A DNA stretch of 64,000 nt from Rikenella microfusus (lineage in GTDB: Bacteria > Bacteroidota > Bacteroidia > Bacteroidales > VadinHA17). The notes below the pieces were generated by a model. The model ran no database searches. It saw only the letters and a program-made list of their open reading frames with translations, and was not told the DNA's origin. Below, in pieces: positions 4,956 to 56,995 of this stretch. Location of the stretch: NCBI GenBank assembly GCA_022736275.1, contig DZBJ01000005.1, positions 456 through 64,455 on the forward strand, written 5' to 3'. The position numbers were made by a program, and so were the translations under genes. Position 1 is the stretch's first letter. Each line of letters starts with the position of its first letter.

Positions 4956-5528
4956 TTAAACAAGCCCGGCGAACCCCATGAAGGCGAGGGCCAGAATGCC
5001 CGCTGTAACAAGAGATATCGGCACTCCCTTCATCCCGGAAGGAACATTGGCGAGATCTAGCTGCTCACGTATCCCAGCGAGAATAACCAGGGCCAGACCA
5101 AAACCAATTGCAGTGGCGGCCCCGTAAACGATACCCTCGGCAAGATTGTAATTCTTCTTGATGACAAGAATCGCCACACCCAAGACCGCGCAGTTCGTCG
5201 TAATCAGAGGAAGGAAAATGCCCAGCGACTGGTACAGGGGCTGGCTGATCTTCTTCAGAATGATCTCAACCATCTGCACAAGCGCAGCAATAACAAGTAT
5301 GAACGTTATTGTCTGCATGAAGGCAATACCCATTGGTATCAGTACATAAACGTGTATGAGGTAGGTTACCATGGTGGCCAGCACCATGACAAAAGTTACC
5401 GCCCCCGACATGCCGATCGCGGTATTCACCTTGTTGGACACCCCGAGGAAGGGGCAGACACCCAGAAACTGGGCTAAAACCACGTTGTTGACAAATATTG
5501 CGCTGATTATAAGCAGAATATATTCCAT
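4956..5528 (-). CDS. rnfA: Rnf electron transport complex subunit A
   Basis: 190 aa, polytopic. The N-terminus [21 protein letters not shown] matches RnfA/RsxA. Confidence 0.92.
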
Positions 5529-5540
5529 TATCTTGCCTCC

Positions 5541-6125
5541 CTATGCTTTTTTGTTTATCCGGTTCACTACTGCTATCATATAACCCAGGGCGATGAATGC
5601 TCCGGGTGCAAGGATAAAGACCAGGATCGCATCTCCTTCTATGAATTTGAAACCGAAGATTGATCCGCCGCCCAGGATCTCCCTGACAGCCCCCAGCACA
5701 CCAAGCGCCAGAGTGAAGCCAATCCCCATCCCGGCGCCGTCAACAAACGACGACCAGACTGTATTCTTGCTTGCATACGCTTCCGCACGTCCCAGTACAA
5801 TACAGTTCACCACTATAAGCGGAATGAATATCCCCAGCGTCACATACAGTGCAGGAACATATGCCTGCATGACGAGGTCAACAATTGTTACGAAGGTGGC
5901 GATAACAACAATAAAAGCAGGTATGCGCACTTTGTCGGGAATGATATTTTTCATCAGCGCAATGACCACATTGGAGCCAATCAGGACAAACGTCGTTGCC
6001 ATCCCCATGCCAAGACCGTTCACTGCAGAAGAGGTCGTGGCAAGAGTGGGGCAGGTACCAAGTACCAGCACCAGTATCGGATTCTCCTTCAGGAAACCCT
6101 TTGTAAAGTTTTGCATCTGGTTCAT
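5541..6125 (-). CDS. rnfE: Rnf electron transport complex subunit E
   Basis: 194 aa. [27 protein letters not shown] and [21 protein letters not shown] match RnfE/RsxE. Confidence 0.92.
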
Positions 6126-10536: not shown

Positions 10537-10571
10537 CAGTCTGCAGTCAACAGTCTGCAGTCCACAGTCTA
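10537..10571 (+). repeat. Heptanucleotide array CAGTCNN x5
   Basis: Units: cagtctg cagtcaa cagtctg cagtcca cagtcta, in perfect 7-nt phase. Confidence 0.85.
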
Positions 10572-10628
10572 AAGTAAACAGGAGGTCATTAATTTACAAA
10601 CAATCAGATATATGACTTGCATACTAAG

Positions 10629-10663
10629 GACTGCCGACTGAGGACTGAGGACTGCTGACTCCT
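10629..10663 (+). repeat. Heptanucleotide array GACTGNN x5 (inverse complement of the CAGTC words); overlaps the recG stop codon
   Basis: Units: gactgcc gactgag gactgag gactgct gactcct. The recG TAG occupies 10662-10664. Confidence 0.85.
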
Positions 10664-12779
10664 AACTGATCTCGCTCCATGAGCACTTCTTTCCGAAAAG
10701 CTTCCGCAGAGTGGCCCTGAGCACCTGGTTTACCGGACGGGCAAGCTCAGGGTCATCACCGAGTATCTCCTCCGCCCGCGAGCGTGCGAGGTTGAGTATC
10801 TGACCGTCCCTCCCCAGGTCAGCAATTTTAAGGTCGAATGCCATGCCGCTTTGCTGCGTTCCCTCAAGATCACCCGGACCGCGCATGCGGAGATCAGCCT
10901 CGGCTATCTCAAAGCCGTCATTGGTCGCAATCATCGTGTTGATGCGCTCGGAGGCTTCCGCAGAGCGTTTATGCGATGTCATCAGGATGCAGTACGACTG
11001 GTCGGCACCGCGGCCCACCCGCCCCCGCAACTGATGCAACTGCGAGAGACCAAATCGCTCGGCACTCTCTATCACCATCACACTGGCGTTTGGGATGTCA
11101 ACACCCACCTCTATTACCGTGGTGGCAACCATTATCTGTGCCTGGCCGCGACGGAACAGGTTCATCGAGATCTCCTTGTCCTTCGACGTCATCCGGCCGT
11201 GCACCACGCTTATGCAGTACTGCGGCGGAGGAAAGGCTCGTGCCATGCTCTCAAGCCCGTCTTCAAGATCCTTATAATCAAGAGATTCCGATTCTCTTAT
11301 CAAAGGGTAGACCACGTATATCTGCCTTCCGTCCTCTATCTGTCTCCGCATGAAACCAAATACCTTTTCGCGCTCAGCATCGGTGAAGCTCATCGTCTTA
11401 ACCGGCTTGCGTCCGGGAGGCATCTCGTCAATGACCGAGACATCAAGGTCACCGTAGAGTGTCATCGCCAGCGTGCGGGGGATAGGTGTTGCCGTCATCA
11501 CCAAAACATGTGGCGGACAGTCGCTCTTCTGCCATAGCTTTGCACGCTGCGCCACACCAAAACGGTGCTGCTCGTCAATAATCACCAGCCCGAGATTCTT
11601 GTATCTGACGTTCTCCTCAATAAGGGCATGCGTGCCAATAAGTATAGTAATAGTACCGTCAAGCAACCCCTGCTCTATACGGGCCCTCTCTCTCCGTTTC
11701 GTCGAGCCTGTCAGCAGCGCCACCTCTGCATCAATCCCCTCCACAAACCGGCTTACTGAATTGTAGTGCTGTATTGCAAGCACTTCCGTGGGGGCCATTA
11801 TACAACTCTGAAAACCGTTGTCGGCCCCGATGAGCATGCTCATCAGAGCAACCATCGTCTTGCCGCTGCCCACATCGCCCTGCAGAAGCCTGTTCATCTG
11901 GTGACCGCTGCCCAGGTCACTCCTGATCTCACGTATGACCCTCTTCTGCGCCTCAGTCAGGGCAAAGGGCAGGTTGTTGGCGTAAAACGAATTAAGCCTC
12001 TCACCCACAACGGAAAAGAGAAAACCGCGCGTGTTCTTCGTCCTGCTTCCCTTGTACCTTAACAGGTTCAGTTGAATATAAAAGAGCTCCTCGAATTTTA
12101 ACCTGAACCGGGCATTCTCTATGTCAGTATTCGAGTCTGGAAAATGGATGCGGAGGAGTGCATCCTGGATACTCATCAGCTTCATCTGCCGGGTGATGGA
12201 ATCAGGCAGTGTCTCCGCAAAGCGAAGCCCCGGAAGTGTAAAGGCGGTGGCTATCAGCTTCGCAACAGCCTTTGATTGAAGGAAGTGATCCTTCATCTTC
12301 TCGGTGGTGCTGTACTGAGCTTCGAGGGCTGAGGCGACCCTCGATTCGCGCTTCTCAACCTCCTCCACCTCAGGATGGACTATGTTGAAGGCCCCGCTGA
12401 ACAGGGTTGGTTTGCCATATATAATGTACTCTTTTTCAATTTTGTATGCATTGAGCACCCATTTGTGCCCTTTGAACCACACCAGCCTCACCATCCCCGT
12501 GTCATCATAGTAATCAGCAGTAAGTCGTGAGCCCCTTCCGCCACCCTCGGTTGAGAAGCGCCGGATCTTTCCCCTGAGCTGGATGTACTGCATGTCGGTG
12601 TCAAGCTCACTGACCTTATAAAAACGGGTCTTGTCAATATACTTGTATGGGAAGTAATAAATGAGATCCCTGAAGGTGCGGATATCAGCCTCCTCCCCGA
12701 GCAGTTCGGCTCTCTTCGGGCCAACCCCCGGAAGGAATTTTATCTCACTGTCAAGGAGTTCTGACATCAGGAAAAGCAT
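10662..12779 (-). CDS. recG: ATP-dependent DNA helicase RecG
   Basis: 705 aa with helicase motifs GDVGSGKT, DEQHRFGV and QLHQLRGRVGRG plus an N-terminal wedge/OB region. An alternative ATG lies at 12767. Confidence 0.95.
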   Translation of the reverse strand: MLFLMSELLDSEIKFLPGVGPKRAELLGEEADIRTFRDLIYYFPYKYIDKTRFYKVSELDTDMQYIQLRGKIRRFSTEGGGRGSRLTADYYDDTGMVRLVWFKGHKWVLNAYKIEKEYIIYGKPTLFSGAFNIVHPEVEEVEKRESRVASALEAQYSTTEKMKDHFLQSKAVAKLIATAFTLPGLRFAETLPDSITRQMKLMSIQDALLRIHFPDSNTDIENARFRLKFEELFYIQLNLLRYKGSRTKNTRGFLFSVVGERLNSFYANNLPFALTEAQKRVIREIRSDLGSGHQMNRLLQGDVGSGKTMVALMSMLIGADNGFQSCIMAPTEVLAIQHYNSVSRFVEGIDAEVALLTGSTKRRERARIEQGLLDGTITILIGTHALIEENVRYKNLGLVIIDEQHRFGVAQRAKLWQKSDCPPHVLVMTATPIPRTLAMTLYGDLDVSVIDEMPPGRKPVKTMSFTDAEREKVFGFMRRQIEDGRQIYVVYPLIRESESLDYKDLEDGLESMARAFPPPQYCISVVHGRMTSKDKEISMNLFRRGQAQIMVATTVIEVGVDIPNASVMVIESAERFGLSQLHQLRGRVGRGADQSYCILMTSHKRSAEASERINTMIATNDGFEIAEADLRMRGPGDLEGTQQSGMAFDLKIADLGRDGQILNLARSRAEEILGDDPELARPVNQVLRATLRKLFGKKCSWSEIS

Positions 12780-25219: not shown

Positions 25220-27388
25220 ATGGATTCTTCAGTACATATAAACATCATTGCTCAGAAACTCCGGCTGCACGACTGGCAGGTGGAGAATACCCTGCGTCTC
25301 ATTGATGACGGAGCAACAATACCCTTTATAAGCCGCTACCGCAAGGAGGTCACCGGCAGTCTCAATGAGGTCCATCTGGCGGAGATCCGTGACGAGTATG
25401 AGAGACTAAGAGAGCTCGACAAGAGGAGAGAAGCAATTATCAAGTCGATCATAGAGCAGGAGAAGATGACCCCGGAACTGCTGGCAAAGATCAATGCTGC
25501 GCTGACTCTGTCCCAGCTCGAAGATATCTACCTCCCCTACAGGCCCAGGAGAAAAACCCGCGCCTCAGTGGCAAGGGAGAGGGGACTAGAGCCTCTTGCC
25601 CTGTGGCTGCTTGAACAGGTACCCGGAGATCCCTATATTGAAGCGGAAAAATACCTGGGTGATGAGGTGGAGACAGCCGATGCAGCCCTGGCAGGTGCTC
25701 GTGACATCATTGCCGAGATGATCAGCGAGGATGAACAGGTGCGGGGTTCACTGAGAAGACTGTATGAACGTGATGCCGTAATCACTTCAAAAGGGGTGAA
25801 AGGCAAGGAGGAGGAGGGGAATAAGTTCAGGGATTACTTCGAGTGGTCCGAGCCCCTGCGCCGCTGTCCCTCACATAGGCTGCTGGCTATGCTCCGCGGC
25901 GAGGAGGAGGGCTTCCTCAGGCTTACAGTATTGCCGGCCGGTGATGATGCTGTCGAGACAGTGGAAAAGGTGATTGTCATGTCAAATAATGGCGCTTCCC
26001 GTCATGTGAAGGAGGCTGTTGCCGACAGCTGGAGCCGCCTGCTCGCTCCCTCTATGGAGACTGAGTTCAGAAAAACATCAAAGGAAAAGGCTGACGGGGA
26101 GGCGATACGCGTTTTTGCCGATAACCTCAGGCAGTTGCTGCTTTCTCCCCCTCTGGGAGAGAAGAGCGTCTTGGCCCTTGACCCGGGGTTCCGTACCGGC
26201 TGCAAAGTCGTCTGCCTCGACAGGCAGGGGTCAATGCTGCATCATGACGTTATCTACCCGCATCCGCCACAGAACGAGACCGCCCGCAGCGTCAGCAAAT
26301 TACTGTCTCTGATAGACAAATTCAGCGTGGAAGCAATAGCCATAGGCAATGGCACTGCCAGCCGCGAGACGGAGAAACTGATCAGACAGTACCTTACGCC
26401 GGGGTCTCCTGTTAAAATATACGTGGTGAGCGAAGCAGGCGCATCAGTCTATTCAGCTTCAAAAACTGCACGCGATGAGTTCCCGGATCATGACGTCACC
26501 GTACGTGGTGCCGTCTCCATCGGCCGTCGACTCATGGACCCTCTGGCGGAGCTCGTGAAGATAGATCCTAAATCCATTGGCGTCGGACAGTACCAGCATG
26601 ATGTCGACCAGACGCGGCTGCAGACCAGCCTTGACGAGGTGGTGATGTCATGCGTCAACGCAGTGGGAGTAGAGGTGAACACCGCCAGCCCCCATCTGCT
26701 TACTTACGTCTCCGGACTGGGACCTAAACTGGCGCAGAACATAGTGGCCCATCGCACGGAGAAGGGCCCGTTCATATCTCGATCTGAGCTGATGAAGGTG
26801 AAAAGAATGGGGGAAAAAGCCTATGAACAGGCTGCAGGTTTCCTAAGAATAAGAAACGCGGACAACCCGCTTGATGCCTCGGCTGTGCATCCCGAAAGCT
26901 ATCATATCGTGGAGAGAATGTCACGCGATGCCGGATGCACCGTGGCTGACCTGATAGGGGATGAGACGAGGCGAAAATCCATTAATATCGAAAAGTATAT
27001 TACCCCTGAGGCCGGACTGCCAACACTGAAGGATATTATGCTGGAACTGGCAAAACCGGGGCGCGATCCGCGGTCGTCAATACAGGAGTTCAGCTTTGCG
27101 GACATACACTCGCTCGAGGATGTGAAGGAGGGAATGGTCGTGCCGGGAATTGTGACGAACATAACGAAGTTTGGAGCGTTTGTAGACATAGGCGTTAAGC
27201 AGGATGGACTGGTGCATGTCTCCCAGATGTCAGACCGCTACGTCGATGACCCGTCAAAGCTGGTTAAGCTCCATCAGCAGCTTATGGTGAGAGTCGTCAG
27301 CGTGGATCTTGCACGGAAGCGGATTCAGCTGACGCTGAAAGGAGTCGGCAGTCCACAGCCCACAGTCGGCAGTCATTTTAGGCAATAG
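25220..27388 (+). CDS. tex: Tex-family transcription accessory protein (S1 domain RNA-binding)
   Basis: 722 aa with TIPFISRYRKE, a YqgF-like core and a C-terminal S1 domain (GMVVPGIVTNITKFGAFVDIG). The last 15 codons lie in a heptad repeat array. Confidence 0.92.
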   Translation: MDSSVHINIIAQKLRLHDWQVENTLRLIDDGATIPFISRYRKEVTGSLNEVHLAEIRDEYERLRELDKRREAIIKSIIEQEKMTPELLAKINAALTLSQLEDIYLPYRPRRKTRASVARERGLEPLALWLLEQVPGDPYIEAEKYLGDEVETADAALAGARDIIAEMISEDEQVRGSLRRLYERDAVITSKGVKGKEEEGNKFRDYFEWSEPLRRCPSHRLLAMLRGEEEGFLRLTVLPAGDDAVETVEKVIVMSNNGASRHVKEAVADSWSRLLAPSMETEFRKTSKEKADGEAIRVFADNLRQLLLSPPLGEKSVLALDPGFRTGCKVVCLDRQGSMLHHDVIYPHPPQNETARSVSKLLSLIDKFSVEAIAIGNGTASRETEKLIRQYLTPGSPVKIYVVSEAGASVYSASKTARDEFPDHDVTVRGAVSIGRRLMDPLAELVKIDPKSIGVGQYQHDVDQTRLQTSLDEVVMSCVNAVGVEVNTASPHLLTYVSGLGPKLAQNIVAHRTEKGPFISRSELMKVKRMGEKAYEQAAGFLRIRNADNPLDASAVHPESYHIVERMSRDAGCTVADLIGDETRRKSINIEKYITPEAGLPTLKDIMLELAKPGRDPRSSIQEFSFADIHSLEDVKEGMVVPGIVTNITKFGAFVDIGVKQDGLVHVSQMSDRYVDDPSKLVKLHQQLMVRVVSVDLARKRIQLTLKGVGSPQPTVGSHFRQ

Positions 27389-27397
27389 GCAATAGTG
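27342..27397 (+). repeat. Heptanucleotide array, 8 units (CAGTCNN then GGCAATA words)
   Basis: Units: gagtcgg cagtcca cagccca cagtcgg cagtcat tttaggc aataggc aatagtg. It contains the tex stop codon (27386-27388). Confidence 0.85.
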
Positions 27398-27405
27398 TCA
27401 ATGAT

Positions 27406-27483
27406 AGCCCGTAGGGCTTATAGTATTGTAGATTAATGTTATATAAATAAATCTCTTTCCCGTAGGGGATATATTATTGTAAA
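27406..27483 (+). repeat. Two hairpin + TATTGTAGA units (GTA triloop, 5-bp stems)
   Basis: Unit 1: agccc-gta-gggct + tatagtattgtaga (27406-27432). Unit 2: ttccc-gta-gggga + tatattattgtaaa (27457-27483). Both are homologous to the inverted units at 53680-53757. Confidence 0.75.
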
Positions 27484-27510
27484 ACAACACATTAACTATA
27501 AAAACTATTT

Positions 27511-29655
27511 ATGAAAAAGACGATTCTATTCCTCTCCGCTGCGGCAATGATGCTCGTGCTGGCATCGTGCGGCAAAAAACCCCAGCCCCCTGTGGCTGAA
27601 AAAATCCCGTACGTCGTTGAAATCAACAGCAACGAACGTGTTGACAATTACTTCTGGATGCGCCTCAGCGATGAACAGAAGAACGCCGAGACGCCTGATT
27701 CACATACTATAAAGGTACTGACTTACCTCAATGCCGAGAATGACTATGCTGACGTAGTTATGAAACATACCGAAGCGTTCCAGACGCTACTCTTTGAAGA
27801 GATAAAGGGACGCATCAAGGAAGATGATGAGACGGTCCCGTACCTGGACAACGGTTACTGGTATCATTCGAAGTACTTCGAAGGCAAGGAGTACCCGGTA
27901 ATGTACAGGAAAAAAGATGGTGCTGAAACACCGGAAGTGATGCTTGATGTCAATCTCCTTGCAGAAGGACACGATTTTACAAGCGTCGGAGGCGGTGCTG
28001 TCTCTCCGGATAATAACCTCCTGGCATACGGTGTTGACCATGTCAGCCGCAGACAGTACACAATTTTTGTGAAGGACCTGAACTCAGGCCAGCTCTTTCC
28101 TGACGAAATTACCAACACCTCCAGCCAGGGAGTATGGGCAGCCGACAGCAAGACTCTGTTCTATGTGAAAAAGGATCCCGAAACCCTCAGGGAGGCCACC
28201 ATCATGAAGCATGTCCTGGGTACCCCCGTCTCTGAAGACAAAGTTGTTTTTGACGAGACGGATGAAACATTCTCAGTCTACCTGGGCAAGACAAAAAGCA
28301 AAAAATATATCACAATCACCTCAAGCCAGACTCTCACAACAGAGGTACGACTTATAGATGCCGCTAAACCTGAGGGTGAACCGGTCATCTTTGAACCCCG
28401 GACTTTTGACCGACTTTACTCAGTTGAACACCTTAACGGACAGTTTTACATTTTGACCAATGCTGACGGTGCAAAGAACTTCAAGCTCATGAAATGTGCT
28501 GACAACAAGATTGGCATAGCCAACTGGACAGAAGTAATACCCCACCGTGCTGATGTTCTTCTTGAAGGTTTTGAAATATTTGACAATTACCTCGTTACCG
28601 ATGAGAGGATCAAGGGGCTGACCAACCTGCGCGTCATCAGTCTCGCTGACGGATCTGAGCATTTCCTCGATTTCGGTGAGGAGACCTATACAGCAGGTAT
28701 AAGTGTCAACTTCAACGCTGCCACCACCCTCCTCAGGTACAGCTACTCATCGCTTACTACCCCGAACTCGGTCTTCGATTATGACATGTCTGTAAAGACG
28801 AAGGTGCTGCTGAAGCAGGACAGCGTCCTCGGAGGGTTCGATACAAACAATTATGAGTCGAAACGTCTCTGGGCTACCGCCGGTGACGGAACACTTGTGC
28901 CTGTATCGCTGGTTTACCGAAAGGGCTTTGTGCAGGATGGCACTGCCCCCATGCTGCTCTATTCCTATGGCTCATACGGAAGCTCGACCAACCCCTCATT
29001 CAGATCCTCGGTAATAAGCCTTCTCGACCGTGGGTTTGTCTATGCTCTTGCCCACATCAGGGGTGGCAGCGAGATGGGTCGCCAGTGGTACGAAGACGGA
29101 AAGCTCCTGAAAAAGATCAACACCTTCACTGACTTCAATGACTGCGCACGTTTCCTGATAAATGAAAAATATACTTCATCGGAGTATCTCTATGCAATGG
29201 GTGGCAGCGCTGGCGGACTCCTGATGGGCGCCATTGTCAACATGGAACCGCAACTCTACAACGGTGTAATCGCTGCGGTGCCATTCGTTGACGTGGTCAG
29301 CACCATGCTTGACGCCACAATTCCCCTGACGACATTTGAATGGGATGAGTGGGGCGATCCGCGCAAACAGGAATACTATGACTATATGCTCTCATACTCA
29401 CCCTATGACCAGGTGAAGGAGCAGGAGTATCCCAACATGCTTGTCACAACAGGTTACTGGGATTCACAGGTGCAGTACTGGGAGCCGGCAAAGTGGGTTG
29501 CCAAACTGCGCGACATGAGAACTGATGACAACATCCTTGTCATGGATGTAAACATGACCGCAGGCCATGGCGGCGCCTCAGGCCGCTTTGAGCGACTGAA
29601 GACCGTAGCCCTCGAGTATGCATTCATTCTTGACCTGGAGGGTATTAAGGAGTAA
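27511..29655 (+). CDS. ptrB: S9 family serine peptidase, oligopeptidase B-like
   Basis: 714 aa with a lipoprotein signal (LASC), an N-terminal propeller region and the catalytic Ser motif GGSAGGLLMG. Confidence 0.8.
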   Translation: MKKTILFLSAAAMMLVLASCGKKPQPPVAEKIPYVVEINSNERVDNYFWMRLSDEQKNAETPDSHTIKVLTYLNAENDYADVVMKHTEAFQTLLFEEIKGRIKEDDETVPYLDNGYWYHSKYFEGKEYPVMYRKKDGAETPEVMLDVNLLAEGHDFTSVGGGAVSPDNNLLAYGVDHVSRRQYTIFVKDLNSGQLFPDEITNTSSQGVWAADSKTLFYVKKDPETLREATIMKHVLGTPVSEDKVVFDETDETFSVYLGKTKSKKYITITSSQTLTTEVRLIDAAKPEGEPVIFEPRTFDRLYSVEHLNGQFYILTNADGAKNFKLMKCADNKIGIANWTEVIPHRADVLLEGFEIFDNYLVTDERIKGLTNLRVISLADGSEHFLDFGEETYTAGISVNFNAATTLLRYSYSSLTTPNSVFDYDMSVKTKVLLKQDSVLGGFDTNNYESKRLWATAGDGTLVPVSLVYRKGFVQDGTAPMLLYSYGSYGSSTNPSFRSSVISLLDRGFVYALAHIRGGSEMGRQWYEDGKLLKKINTFTDFNDCARFLINEKYTSSEYLYAMGGSAGGLLMGAIVNMEPQLYNGVIAAVPFVDVVSTMLDATIPLTTFEWDEWGDPRKQEYYDYMLSYSPYDQVKEQEYPNMLVTTGYWDSQVQYWEPAKWVAKLRDMRTDDNILVMDVNMTAGHGGASGRFERLKTVALEYAFILDLEGIKE

Positions 29656-47412: not shown

Positions 47413-47461
47413 ATTTCCGATTGTCGATTTCCGATTTAATCGACAATCGCAAATCGACAAT
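47413..47461 (+). repeat. Heptanucleotide array, 7 units (ATTGTCG/ATTTCCG/CGACAAT words)
   Basis: Units: atttccg attgtcg atttccg atttaat cgacaat cgcaaat cgacaat. It also contains the 8-bp inverted repeat attgtcga/tcgacaat. Confidence 0.85.
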
Positions 47462-53603: not shown

Positions 53604-53679
53604 TCATCCGGGAAGACAAAAAAAGCTGCGTGAGCAGCTTTTATTATCTAAATCAATATCGATTTTCTTTGTCATTAGG

Positions 53680-53757
53680 TCTACAATACTTCATGACCTA
53701 CGGTCAAAGATTCTAGTTATAATTAACTATTCTACAATATTTTATGGCCTACGGCCA
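53680..53757 (-). repeat. Two hairpin + TATTGTAGA units (inverted copies of those at 27406-27483)
   Basis: The minus strand reads tggcc-gta-ggcca + taaaatattgtaga (53757-53731) and tgacc-gta-ggtca + tgaagtattgtaga (53706-53680). Confidence 0.75.
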
Positions 53758-53765
53758 ACTCCTCA

Positions 53766-53828
53766 CTATTGCCTTCTGCCTATTGCCTGAAATGACTGCC
53801 GACTGAGGGCTGCCGACTAACGACTGGT
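53766..53828 (-). repeat. Heptanucleotide array, 9 units, abutting the lysA stop codon
   Basis: Plus-strand units: ctattgc cttctgc ctattgc ctgaaat gactgcc gactgag ggctgcc gactaac gactggt. The minus strand reads CAGTC-type then GGCAATA-type words. Confidence 0.85.
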
Positions 53829-54979
53829 TATATATCATCGGAAAATACCGCCGGCGGCAGCGAACGCATGTTGTAGCGCATCGCCATCACCTCCCCGTAG
53901 GCCCCGGCCGACCTGATGGCAATGAGGTCACCACGTCCGGTCTCAGGCAGTGAAATGAATTTCCCGAAGATGTCAGTGCTCTCACAGATAGGTCCTGCAA
54001 CGGTATATTTCCCGGGTGGCAGCACCGAGGTGAGATTTTCGATACGGTGGAAGGCGTGGTAGAGCGCGGGCCTCAGCAGGTCTGTCATTCCGGCGTCAAG
54101 GATGATAAAGGTCTCACTGGTACCTGGCTTCACATAAAGCACCTTAGAGATCAGGGCGCCGCACCCGGCGGTGAGTGATCTGCCAAGCTCAAAGGATATG
54201 GTGCTGCGTATCTTCCTGTCAAGATGCTCCCTGAAAATATCGAAGTAATCGGCAAAGGAGGGAAACCGGTCAGGCTCCTCGTAACTTATGCCAAGTCCTC
54301 CGCCCAAATTGATATCCTCAGGCTCCATTCCCCTGTCGGTGAACCATTGCCATAGCTCGTTCACCCTCAGGCAGAGATTCCGGTAGACATGGAGATCGGT
54401 TATCTGCGAGCCTATGTGGAAATGAATTCCTCTGAAGTCGATGTTCTCCAGCCCGGACAGGAGGGAGATCACCTTCTCAAGTTCGGCAATCCTTATGCCG
54501 AATTTGTTCTCATCGGTTCCGGTTGTAATATGTTTTAGCGTATGGGCTTCGACGTTTGGATTGATGCGCAGCGCCACTGCTGCCCGTCTCCCTGCCTTGC
54601 CTGCAATTTCATTTAAAACTTCCAGCTCTGCTGCCGATTCTGCATTGAAGCATTTTATCCCGAGCTTCAGGGCAGTCTCAATCTCCCGGTCGCTCTTGCC
54701 AACACCCGCAAAGACCGTTTCGTCTGCCGGAAATCCGCAGTTCACAGCCAGATCAATCTCATTGCCACTGACACAGTCTGCCCCAAATCCGTACCCTGCA
54801 ATTATCTTCATTATCACGGGGTTGAAGTTGGCCTTGACGGCATAATGTACCTTAAAACCCCTTTTGGCAGCCTCCCCTGAGGCTACGGCAAGCGTCTCCC
54901 GCAACAGGTCGAGATCATAATAGTAGAAGGGAGTCTCGTGTCTCTTCAGCTTTCCAGTCAATTCAGTCGTGAACATCAT
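53828..54979 (-). CDS. lysA: Diaminopimelate decarboxylase
   Basis: 383 aa with the PLP-Lys block HYAVKANFNP, NLGGGLGISY and GPICESTD. Confidence 0.92.
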   Translation of the reverse strand: MMFTTELTGKLKRHETPFYYYDLDLLRETLAVASGEAAKRGFKVHYAVKANFNPVIMKIIAGYGFGADCVSGNEIDLAVNCGFPADETVFAGVGKSDREIETALKLGIKCFNAESAAELEVLNEIAGKAGRRAAVALRINPNVEAHTLKHITTGTDENKFGIRIAELEKVISLLSGLENIDFRGIHFHIGSQITDLHVYRNLCLRVNELWQWFTDRGMEPEDINLGGGLGISYEEPDRFPSFADYFDIFREHLDRKIRSTISFELGRSLTAGCGALISKVLYVKPGTSETFIILDAGMTDLLRPALYHAFHRIENLTSVLPPGKYTVAGPICESTDIFGKFISLPETGRGDLIAIRSAGAYGEVMAMRYNMRSLPPAVFSDDI

Positions 54980-56494: not shown

Positions 56495-56522
56495 GACTTT
56501 TGACTTTTGACCTTTGACTTTT
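56495..56522 (+). repeat. Heptanucleotide array GACTTTT x4
   Basis: Units: gactttt gactttt gaccttt gactttt. It ends 4 nt before tRNA-Leu(CAG). Confidence 0.9.
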
Positions 56523-56526
56523 AATA

Positions 56527-56610
56527 GCCCAGATGGCGAAATTGGTAGACGCGCTAGTTTCAGGGACTAGTGTCAGCAATGATGTGCAGGTTCGAGTCCT
56601 GTTCTGGGCA
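56527..56610 (+). tRNA. tRNA-Leu (anticodon CAG)
   Basis: Hand fold: acceptor gcccaga/tctgggc, D-arm gcg-aaattggtaga-cgc, anticodon stem ctagt/actag with loop ttCAGgg, a long variable arm, and T-arm gcagg-ttcgagt-cctgt. No CCA is encoded. Confidence 0.9.
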
Positions 56611-56619
56611 CAAAAATCT

Positions 56620-56696
56620 GCACAGAGCACAGTGCAAGGAGCACAGAGCAGTAACATTATGCCCTGAGCCCTGAGTTCTGAGCCCTGAGCCAAAAC
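56620..56696 (+). repeat. Heptanucleotide array, 11 units, filling the inter-tRNA spacer
   Basis: Units: gcacaga gcacagt gcaagga gcacaga gcagtaa cattatg ccctgag ccctgag ttctgag ccctgag ccaaaac, all in one phase. Confidence 0.9.
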
Positions 56697-56697
56697 C

Positions 56698-56781
56698 GCC
56701 CAGGTGGTGAAATTGGTAGACACGCCAGCTTGAGGGGCTGGTGCTCGCAAGGGTGTGCAAGTTCGAGTCTTGTCCTGGGCA
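56698..56781 (+). tRNA. tRNA-Leu (anticodon GAG)
   Basis: Hand fold: acceptor gcccagg/cctgggc, D-arm gtg-aaattggtaga-cac, anticodon stem ccagc/gctgg with loop ttGAGgg, a long variable arm, and T-arm gcaag-ttcgagt-cttgt. Confidence 0.9.
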
Positions 56782-56820: not shown

Positions 56821-56869
56821 GAGTTCTCAGTCAGCAGTCTTCAGCCGGCAGTCATTTCAAGCAATAGAG
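56821..56869 (+). repeat. Heptanucleotide array, 7 units (CAGTCNN then GCAATAG)
   Basis: Units: gagttct cagtcag cagtctt cagccgg cagtcat ttcaagc aatagag. It shares ggcagtcattt.a.gcaatag with the arrays at 27342 and 53766. Confidence 0.85.
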
Positions 56870-56884
56870 GGGCGAGCGTTAATA

Positions 56885-56903
56885 AATGACCCAGTGGGTC
56901 ATT
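56885..56903. other. 8-bp hairpin with a triloop
   Basis: aatgaccc-agt-gggtcatt, lying between two heptad arrays. Confidence 0.6.
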
Positions 56904-56946
56904 TTAGCGATGCAGCCAGATTGCAGGGTAGGCAAGGGAATTTTTG

Positions 56947-56995
56947 ATTTCAGATTGTCGATTTAATCGCACAAATCGTAAATCGCAAATTGGCA
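56947..56995 (+). repeat. Heptanucleotide array, 7 units (ATTGTCG/ATCGNAA words), ending 1 nt before the GH3-gene stop codon
   Basis: Units: atttcag attgtcg atttaat cgcacaa atcgtaa atcgcaa attggca. It shares attgtcg + atttaat + cg with the array at 47413, which has one extra unit (atttccg) between them. Confidence 0.85.

Follow-up and report, generated by a model that had tools for sequence, protein, structure and literature searches.

REP-like hairpin repeats of Bacteroidota near Rikenella microfusus tex and lysA, and their association with an IS200-like Y1 endonuclease gene in related genomes

Four short hairpin units in a 64,000-nucleotide stretch of Rikenella microfusus DNA (the window; contig DZBJ01000005.1, positions 456 to 64,455, about 50% G+C) are best read as repetitive extragenic palindromic (REP)-like single-stranded DNA hairpin repeats of Bacteroidota that would be serviced by a domesticated Y1 endonuclease of the HUH type, the heptad repeats beside them being a separate matter; we give this reading a probability of about 0.75. 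Each unit is a 5-bp stem closed by a GTA loop and followed by a conserved tail, and the units stand in two pairs, one between tex and a peptidase gene and the other, on the opposite strand, after lysA. Across many Bacteroidota genomes the hairpin itself is under selection, and in relatives of the source organism inverted copies bracket a Y1 HUH gene, which ties REP-like repeats to an IS200-like Y1 subclass previously thought to lack them.

The original prediction, made from the letters of the window, described at tex an ordered series of heptads, an 8-nt gap and two hairpin-tail units, with an inverted copy of the same spacings after lysA. The sequence at tex reads in this order and the inverted copy is confirmed, the 8-nt gap and the 24-nt spacer being identical in length at both places, the paired units being spaced 51 nt within each copy, and the two composites sharing 80% identity over about 200 aligned columns of heptads, linker and units (Table 1). 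The motif CCGTAGG-N9-ATTGTA has exactly four sites in the window, namely these units, against a chance expectation of 0.74 matches even with two mismatches allowed. A covariance model trained on units from other genomes (R1) returned the same four only (E = 1e-9 to 3e-8), with no other match in the window below E = 9. As motif and model both return exactly these four, the units are not chance occurrences. They are passengers where they stand: one pair occupies the short spacer ahead of the peptidase gene, which starts 27 nt past unit 2 (at 27511), and the other lies in the 3' untranslated region of lysA, whose transcript is likely to end in reality at the terminator-like hairpin beyond the copy.

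A scan of a genome collection for two adjacent units yielded more than 113 stretches, so that further copies in relatives, which the original prediction had left to be sought, proved very numerous; the family-wide counts given below rest on 113 loci among the matches listed. Nearly all carriers are metagenome-assembled genomes (MAGs) of Bacteroidota (Rikenellaceae and other Bacteroidales, Flavobacteriales, Chitinophagales, Sphingobacteriales and Cytophagales), with a few stretches from Ignavibacteriaceae, Calditrichaeota and UASB14, and many unit loci per MAG appear among those matches. Carriers include a cultured organism, Flavobacterium sp. NKUCC04_CG (L050). Units occur singly or head-to-tail in arrays of up to nine, with a period of 48–56 nt. 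Spacers inside one array are near-identical, and the arrays are therefore tandem duplications rather than CRISPR-like; an array of CRISPR or type III toxin-antitoxin kind is ruled out by these near-identical spacers and by the many unrelated intergenic sites.

The family has the consensus T-[W S S C C]-GTA-[G G S S W]-T-A-N-A-K-TATTGTAG-A, preceded by a 5' flank (positions -8 to -4) that is variable except for a T or A at -4. The three outer stem pairs, left free in the search pattern, are 95–97% Watson-Crick, with A-T and T-A as well as C-G and G-C interchanging. Over 144 units, 97.6% of stem cells are paired, compared with 70.9% after shuffling and 27–52% when the partner is slid, and 158 double changes were counted. 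The set ascertained through the protein (46 independent units, see below) gave 98.2% pairing and compensatory changes at four of the five pairs. The compensatory changes claimed from the four window stems are thus strongly borne out in both sets, and the hairpin is under selection. Mutual information is strongest for the stem pairs, followed by a linked trio (-4, +10 and +14) whose members are markers of two subfamilies. The loop had been called constant; where the search did not force it, it reads GTA in 340 of 377 units and mostly GCA, GAA or ATA in the remainder, and since the closing C-G pair is almost invariant the constant core is better written C-GNA-G. Triloops of the type d(C-GNA-G) form unusually stable DNA mini-hairpins, which would fit a DNA-level element. 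A longer outer stem joining the 5' flank to the TATTG tail, suggested by the fold of unit 1, was rejected, the flank being unconserved and without covariation with the tail. A promoter in the tail was likewise rejected, TATTGTAG misfitting the Bacteroidetes -7 box TAnnTTTG on reading the sequence, with no dedicated scan for that box; a sigma-70-type scan gave chance-level matches only.

Orthologous tex-peptidase spacers contain two units in the window, three in locus L096, five in L006, six to eight in L026 and at least three in the partial locus L002, with stems that differ at equivalent positions, and the final unit keeps its place about 30 nt ahead of the start codon in four orthologous loci. 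Given these differing counts and the fixed position of the last unit, arrays expand and contract at one fixed site. The Tex and peptidase proteins of the window are 85–93% identical to their Rikenellaceae and Rikenella MAG counterparts.

When the open reading frames (ORFs) of the 113 loci were clustered, the most widely shared protein was one of about 155 aa, present at 12 loci, or 14 when fragments are included. It matches the Pfam family Y1_Tnp (PF01797) at 1e-23, and its score with the NCBIfam IS200/IS605 model NF033573 is narrowly above the cut-off (63.8 bits against 55). The motifs H-x-H, W-Q and Y...Q..H-H, with H56, H58 and Y116, are invariant in the eight full-length members of this small, catalytically intact Y1 HUH endonuclease. 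The nearest solved structures matched by its profile are the ISDra2 and IS608 TnpA proteins, and TnpA_REP (4ER8) gave no match at E = 0.01. At three loci (L070, L036 and L041) the gene lies between inverted unit arrays whose tails point toward it.

The association also holds in the reverse direction. When a metagenome collection was searched with the Y1 protein only and 80 loci among the matches listed were kept, the unit model matched just upstream of the gene on the plus strand and just downstream on the minus strand in nearly all close homologues. Each flank comprises two hairpins, the outer with TATTGTAGAA and the inner, about 24 nt on, followed by TAAAC. An inward-facing perfect C-GNA-G hairpin lies within 300 nt of the gene at 60 of the 80 loci, and 45.9 kb of Y1 flank contain 227 such hairpins, compared with 17 over 177 kb of distal DNA, an enrichment of about 50-fold. 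Units and intact Y1 gene are thus associated both ways, in a REPtron-like arrangement. Hairpin and tail variants differ among Y1 loci; more distant Y1 genes have ACCCC-GAA-GGGGT with ATGATTATAA, as would be expected if protein and repeat co-evolve. The closest relative of the source genome is the MAG holding L006, whose Tex is 90% identical to that of the window, and L063, where the units that flank the Y1 gene have the hairpin TGGCC-GTA-GGCCA, exactly that of 53745-53757 in the window, and where the tail of the first unit overlaps the Y1 stop codon.

Two Y1 proteins were followed across eight to nine samples and each occurred in largely one gene neighbourhood, as would be expected if the gene is resident and not an insertion sequence that jumps. 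No tnpB partner was seen in the Y1 flanks examined. Proteins of this type form 2826 database clusters at E <= 1e-20; Joint Genome Institute (JGI) annotations often name them 'REP element-mobilizing transposase RayT' and NCBI calls them IS200/IS605 family transposase, the JGI name presumably being a generic COG label for Y1 transposases and not a sign of known repeats. At one locus, L204, a block of about 170 nt is directly repeated on either side of the Y1 gene (1747-1915 and 2447-2615); in each block a left-end module comes after a right-end one, with four hairpins, as if gene-less end pairs stood in tandem with a gene-bearing copy.

By their motifs, rather than by tree placement, these proteins appear to belong to TnpA_Y1 subclass 1.2 of Quentin, Siguier, Chandler & Fichant (2018; PMC6006769), for which Table 1 of that survey gives the signature Y---Q--HH, WQ and a DH[IV]H-type HuH motif, a length of about 148 aa and a distribution in Bacteroidetes and Cyanobacteria. 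Ours have about 150 aa, [DN]H[VIL]H, WQ, YIxNQxxHH and a conserved C-terminal extension, a Bacteroidetes distribution and a low copy number. The survey lists no REP for subclass 1.2, whereas the Y1 genes here are consistently bracketed by C-GNA-G hairpins, the 5-bp stems of which are shorter than the 7–20-nt stems required by its RNAMotif search. A string search of its whole Table S1 (CGTAGG, TTGTAG, ATTGTA and complements) and the rows read there (subclass 2.6 from DalkA01 on, 2.7, 2.8 and class 3) contained no such unit, and searches of the available literature by sequence string and keyword returned no description of it.

The likeness to REP/RAYT systems (Nunvar 2010, PMC2817692; Ton-Hoang 2012, PMC3333891; Messing 2012, PMC3479197; RAYT, REP-associated tyrosine transposase) is one of kind: many short extragenic hairpin repeats with covarying stems, intergenic clustering especially at gene 3' ends, repeat variants that differ between protein clades, a Y1 HUH gene between inverted copies of its own repeat (here in relatives, not in the source genome) and, judging from two proteins, apparently one locus per genome. 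To this extent the suggestion of REPs or bacterial interspersed mosaic elements (BIMEs) made in the original prediction stands, whereas its specific hallmarks do not. Canonical REPs carry GTAG or GTGG 0–2 nt 5' of the hairpin foot, and the units lack it there; the GTAG noticed near the hairpins is real, but lies in the loop and 3' stem and in the tail. REP stems measure 7–20 bp as opposed to 5 bp, and the conserved single-stranded part of our units is the 3' tail. BIMEs alternate in orientation, whereas the units run head-to-tail with inversion mainly around the Y1 gene, and RAYTs are class 2 proteins with a YI..NP motif, whereas the Y1 proteins here are of the class-1, IS200-like type (Y-I-x-N-Q-x-x-H-H). 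Canonical REP/RAYT membership fails on three points (GTAG foot, protein clade and BIME), but the system still makes a strong working analogy. Of the GTAG palindromic repeats of Di Nocera (2013; PMC3733652), known as singletons, dimers and head-to-tail (HT) tandems, Thauera GTAG-1 shares the 5-bp stem, but the tag of those repeats is unpaired at one stem end, unlike here, and in the consulted part of that paper GTAG repeats are named for Proteobacteria, Cyanobacteria and the Planctomycetes-Verrucomicrobia-Chlamydiae (PVC) superphylum, with Bacteroidetes named for CGTC repeats only.

A more specific version of our reading, which we hold with slightly better than even confidence, is that C-GNA-G units are the cognate repeats, hitherto overlooked, of the 'orphan' subclass-1.2 Y1 proteins, forming a REP/RAYT-analogous system that would have been kept vertically across the Fibrobacteres-Chlorobi-Bacteroidetes (FCB) group, would have an origin in class-1 (IS200) transposases separate from that of the RAYTs of Proteobacteria, and would recognize the GNA-triloop mini-hairpin together with the 3' TATTGTAG site. 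By analogy with the IS200/IS605 TnpA proteins of IS608 and ISDra2 and with RAYT/REP systems such as TnpA_REP of E. coli, the Y1 protein would bind the mini-hairpin in single-stranded DNA, for instance at replication forks, and would cut and rejoin near the conserved tail, 6–13 nt 3' of the stem; the right-end cut of IS608 TnpA lies at a comparable place 3' of its stem. Such cutting and rejoining may copy or maintain units and let arrays grow and shrink.

Table 1. Hairpin units, heptad arrays and accompanying features in the window (CM, covariance model).
Feature	Position	Strand	Details
Heptad arrays at tex	27341-27397	+	about 5 CAGTCNN-type, CATTTTA junction, about 2.5 AGGCAAT
REP-like unit 1	27406-27432	+	AGCCC-GTA-GGGCT (27406-27418) + tail TATAGTATTGTAGA; tail at 27419-27432 reads tatagtattgtaga; CM R1 46.5 bits, E = 1e-9
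AT-rich spacer between tex units	27433-27456	+	24 nt
REP-like unit 2	27457-27483	+	TTCCC-GTA-GGGGA (27457-27469, one G.T pair) + tail TATATTATTGTAAA; tail at 27470-27483 reads tatattattgtaaa; CM R1 40.8 bits, E = 2.8e-8
Terminator-like hairpin with T run	53621-53642	-	beyond lysA copy; sequence scan
REP-like unit, lysA-distal	53680-53706	-	TGACC-GTA-GGTCA (53694-53706) + tail TGAAGTATTGTAGA (53680-53693); CM R1 40.8 bits
Spacer between lysA units	53707-53730	-	24 nt
REP-like unit, lysA-proximal	53731-53757	-	TGGCC-GTA-GGCCA (53745-53757) + tail TAAAATATTGTAGA (53731-53744)
Heptad arrays at lysA	53766-53826	-	CAGTCNN, then AGGCAAT/AGGCAGA
Third, partial heptad block	56829-56868	+	AGTCAGCAGTCTTCAGCCGGCAGTCATTTCAAGCAATAG; without hairpin units

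Several points weigh against the reading of the units as Y1-serviced DNA repeats. The search for a RAYT or IS200-like tnpA gene proposed in the original prediction found none in the 64-kb window, nor was the Y1 gene of the source MAG located, the four homologues of NCBI origin (P0007, P0029, P0086 and P0023) belonging to other assemblies; the gene link therefore comes from relatives. Each hairpin is weak (-3.5 to -5.2 kcal/mol as DNA, -6 to -8.6 as RNA) with modest z-scores, and the case for structure accordingly rests on covariation, not on energy. The single-stranded DNA mechanism and the role proposed for the tail are analogies. Counts from both collection scans are lower bounds on the matches listed, not copy numbers per genome, and the context of 184 arrays was determined with crude ORF calls. 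In that context, counting orientation relative to upstream genes, as had been proposed, revealed a mild sense bias (87 arrays sense, 46 antisense) that would also fit use at the RNA level.

One alternative is indeed that the units act mainly as RNA, in 3' untranslated or intercistronic regions, where they might for instance stabilize mRNA as hairpins, terminate transcription weakly or bind a protein, and that the Y1 link is secondary. Both window copies are sense and directly follow a gene, unit 2 looks terminator-like in a simple scan, the sense bias amounts to 87 of 133 arrays, and covariation by itself cannot separate RNA from single-stranded DNA. Only three of the 184 arrays lie inside ORFs, and 41 lie in convergent as opposed to 19 in divergent spacers, so that together with the orientation counts the arrays come out as extragenic, favouring gene 3' ends, with an orientation only weakly tied to transcription. 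About one third, however, are antisense to the upstream gene, and 27 of 73 arrays between co-directional genes are antisense to both; most units have no U tract after them, and lysA has a separate canonical terminator past its copy. As the original prediction had it, no RNA family was recognized: Rfam at gathering thresholds found two tRNAs only in the whole window, and at E up to 10 gave two chance-level matches (15 and 12 bits) in 27300-27540. An RNA-level role would also leave unexplained the inverted arrays around the gene of a DNA-processing enzyme. We consider such a role improbable, and the terminator or small-RNA module entertained in the original prediction is poorly supported, given the weak orientation bias, the separate lysA terminator and the lack of an Rfam match.

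Marginally less improbable, though still unlikely, is that the Y1 gene and its flanking hairpins are an active IS200-like insertion sequence of which the scattered units are derivatives resembling miniature inverted-repeat transposable elements (MITEs). The protein passes the IS200/IS605 transposase model, has Y1_Tnp architecture with intact HUH and a single catalytic Tyr, and finds its nearest structures in IS608 and ISDra2; the small subterminal hairpin, whose conserved site lies about 10 nt 3' of its stem, recalls the IS608 right end, and a defined two-hairpin module stands on either side of the gene, the L204 end-module block even being directly repeated around it. In IS200/IS605 ends, by contrast, both hairpins lie on one strand, whereas those flanking the Y1 gene are mutually inverted; the gene appears fixed at one locus, as far as the two proteins show, and the units far outnumber it and form head-to-tail tandem arrays of up to nine, which is not MITE-like. 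For this subclass, moreover, the survey (PMC6006769) reports a copy number of about 1.7 per genome and an identity of 36% between the copies. About as improbable as an RNA-level role is a third possibility, that heptads and units form one composite mobile module that is copied whole, in which the heptads could be left by the same enzyme as a by-product or serve it as a second recognition site. It draws on the identity of the two window copies through heptads, linker and units, on the sharing of TATTG between the tail and TATTGCC (the complement of AGGCAAT), and on the oriented placement of AGGCART arrays in Rikenellaceae, 11 of 18 standing upstream (5') of a same-strand unit array, at most 80 nt away, and none downstream or reversed. 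Yet the tex spacer of L096 has three units and no heptads while that of L006 has about 180 nt of heptads; heptad density is equal in intergenic DNA with and without units (0.45 versus 0.41 per kb); no heptads occur in 59.7 kb of Y1 gene flanks, on which ground they were rejected as part of the Y1 system; and the window holds a lone heptad block and other scattered arrays. Heptamer simple repeats of Bacteroidetes are, besides, already on record (PMC4679880). Of the composite element first proposed, the oriented AGGCART-unit association survives and the unity does not: in Rikenellaceae the composite is a recurrent juxtaposition outside the Y1-linked module, and the heptads make up a class of hypervariable simple repeat in their own right, which in this lineage often stands just 5' of unit arrays.

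What had been taken for a single heptad array comprises two families, CAGTCNN followed by AGGCAAT, and its placement after tex applies to the units, the heptads overlapping the end of the tex ORF (25220-27388), whose last 14 codons (VGSPQPTVGSHFRQ) they encode and whose stop codon (27386-27388) they supply. Tex orthologues diverge directly past ...LKG, where the heptads begin, and end in ...LKGVGSPQPTVGSHFRQ in the window, ...MKGVGSPQSAAGSQNQSAAGSRKSVGSSQ in L006, ...LKGINKVKDL* in L096 and ...LKGLGK* in L026; with heptads directly after the conserved ...LKG, the Tex C-terminus therefore differs in each genome. The AGGCAAT repeat offers TAG in all frames within 21 nt, and translation therefore stops at any copy number. 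At lysA the heptads begin one base past the stop codon (53828-53830).

Other heptad arrays of the window lie at 10537-10581, 10623-10669, 47413-47461, 56495-56691 (around tRNAs) and 56829-56990. The partial block that begins the last of these is a CAGTCNN-CATTTCA-AGCAATAG junction past a terminator-like hairpin and has no units, so that a heptad block can occur alone; an orthologous stretch was found upstream of a unit array in L012. Between two genes, CAGTCNN (10537-10581, plus strand) and its complement NNGACTG (10623-10669) stand opposite each other, separated by about 40 nt of AT-rich core, as an inverted pair without hairpin units. Heptads of the AAATCG[CT] type occur at 47413-47461, where they are partly palindromic, and at 56950-56990, and also adjoin unit arrays in L052, L060 and L106. 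GACTTTT, GCACAGA and GCCCTGA heptads (56495-56522 and 56620-56691) stand directly before and between two tRNA genes (56527-56610 and 56698-56781). Short tandemly repeated repetitive (STRR) sequences of cyanobacteria are heptamer simple-sequence repeats. Heptamer repeats (LSSRs) are also described for some Bacteroidetes in MacGregor (2015; PMC4679880), and the arrays at 27341-27397 and 53766-53826 resemble both kinds, being direct repeats of 7 nt that lie between genes and vary in copy number. They differ from the TAACTGA repeats of that paper in sequence (CAGTCNN, AGGCART and AAATCGY), and from known heptamer repeats in that one array enters the end of an ORF and that AGGCART is oriented relative to hairpin units.

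Two further variants of the units were observed. Some units of L016 (e.g. about 5520-5570), L027, L042, L045, L059 and L196 contain an additional 7-bp hairpin rich in G+C, GCCCCGA-TTTA-TCGGGGC, which separates ...CGTAGAGC from the TATTGTAG tail; with GTAG, a few nucleotides and a longer stem, they look like a canonical GTAG-type REP nested inside a unit. Outside Bacteroidota proper, L009 and L058 (UASB14 scaffold DF820459.1) hold very dense fields of ACGCC-GTA-GGCGT-type units in mixed orientation, interleaved with a second hairpin type, ACCGC-GTA-GCGGT with GGTATTGTCCC; at the edge of the locus there is a fragment of a Y1 gene.

If our reading is true, a widespread family of small Y1 HUH proteins, for whose subclass 1.2 the main survey of Y1 enzymes found no repeat (PMC6006769), gains a partner DNA element that is a testable substrate, and the pairing of a domesticated transposase with a genome-wide hairpin repeat would have more than one origin, the one in Bacteroidota going back to the IS200 branch. 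The 27-nt hairpin-plus-tail could be a substrate for HUH-tag style tools that conjugate single-stranded DNA to protein, and copy-number variation at orthologous sites could aid strain typing. A large part of the intergenic sequence that has no other explanation in MAGs of Rikenellaceae and other Bacteroidota is marked by the units, which together with the heptads can remodel the ends of genes, as at the C-terminus of Tex.

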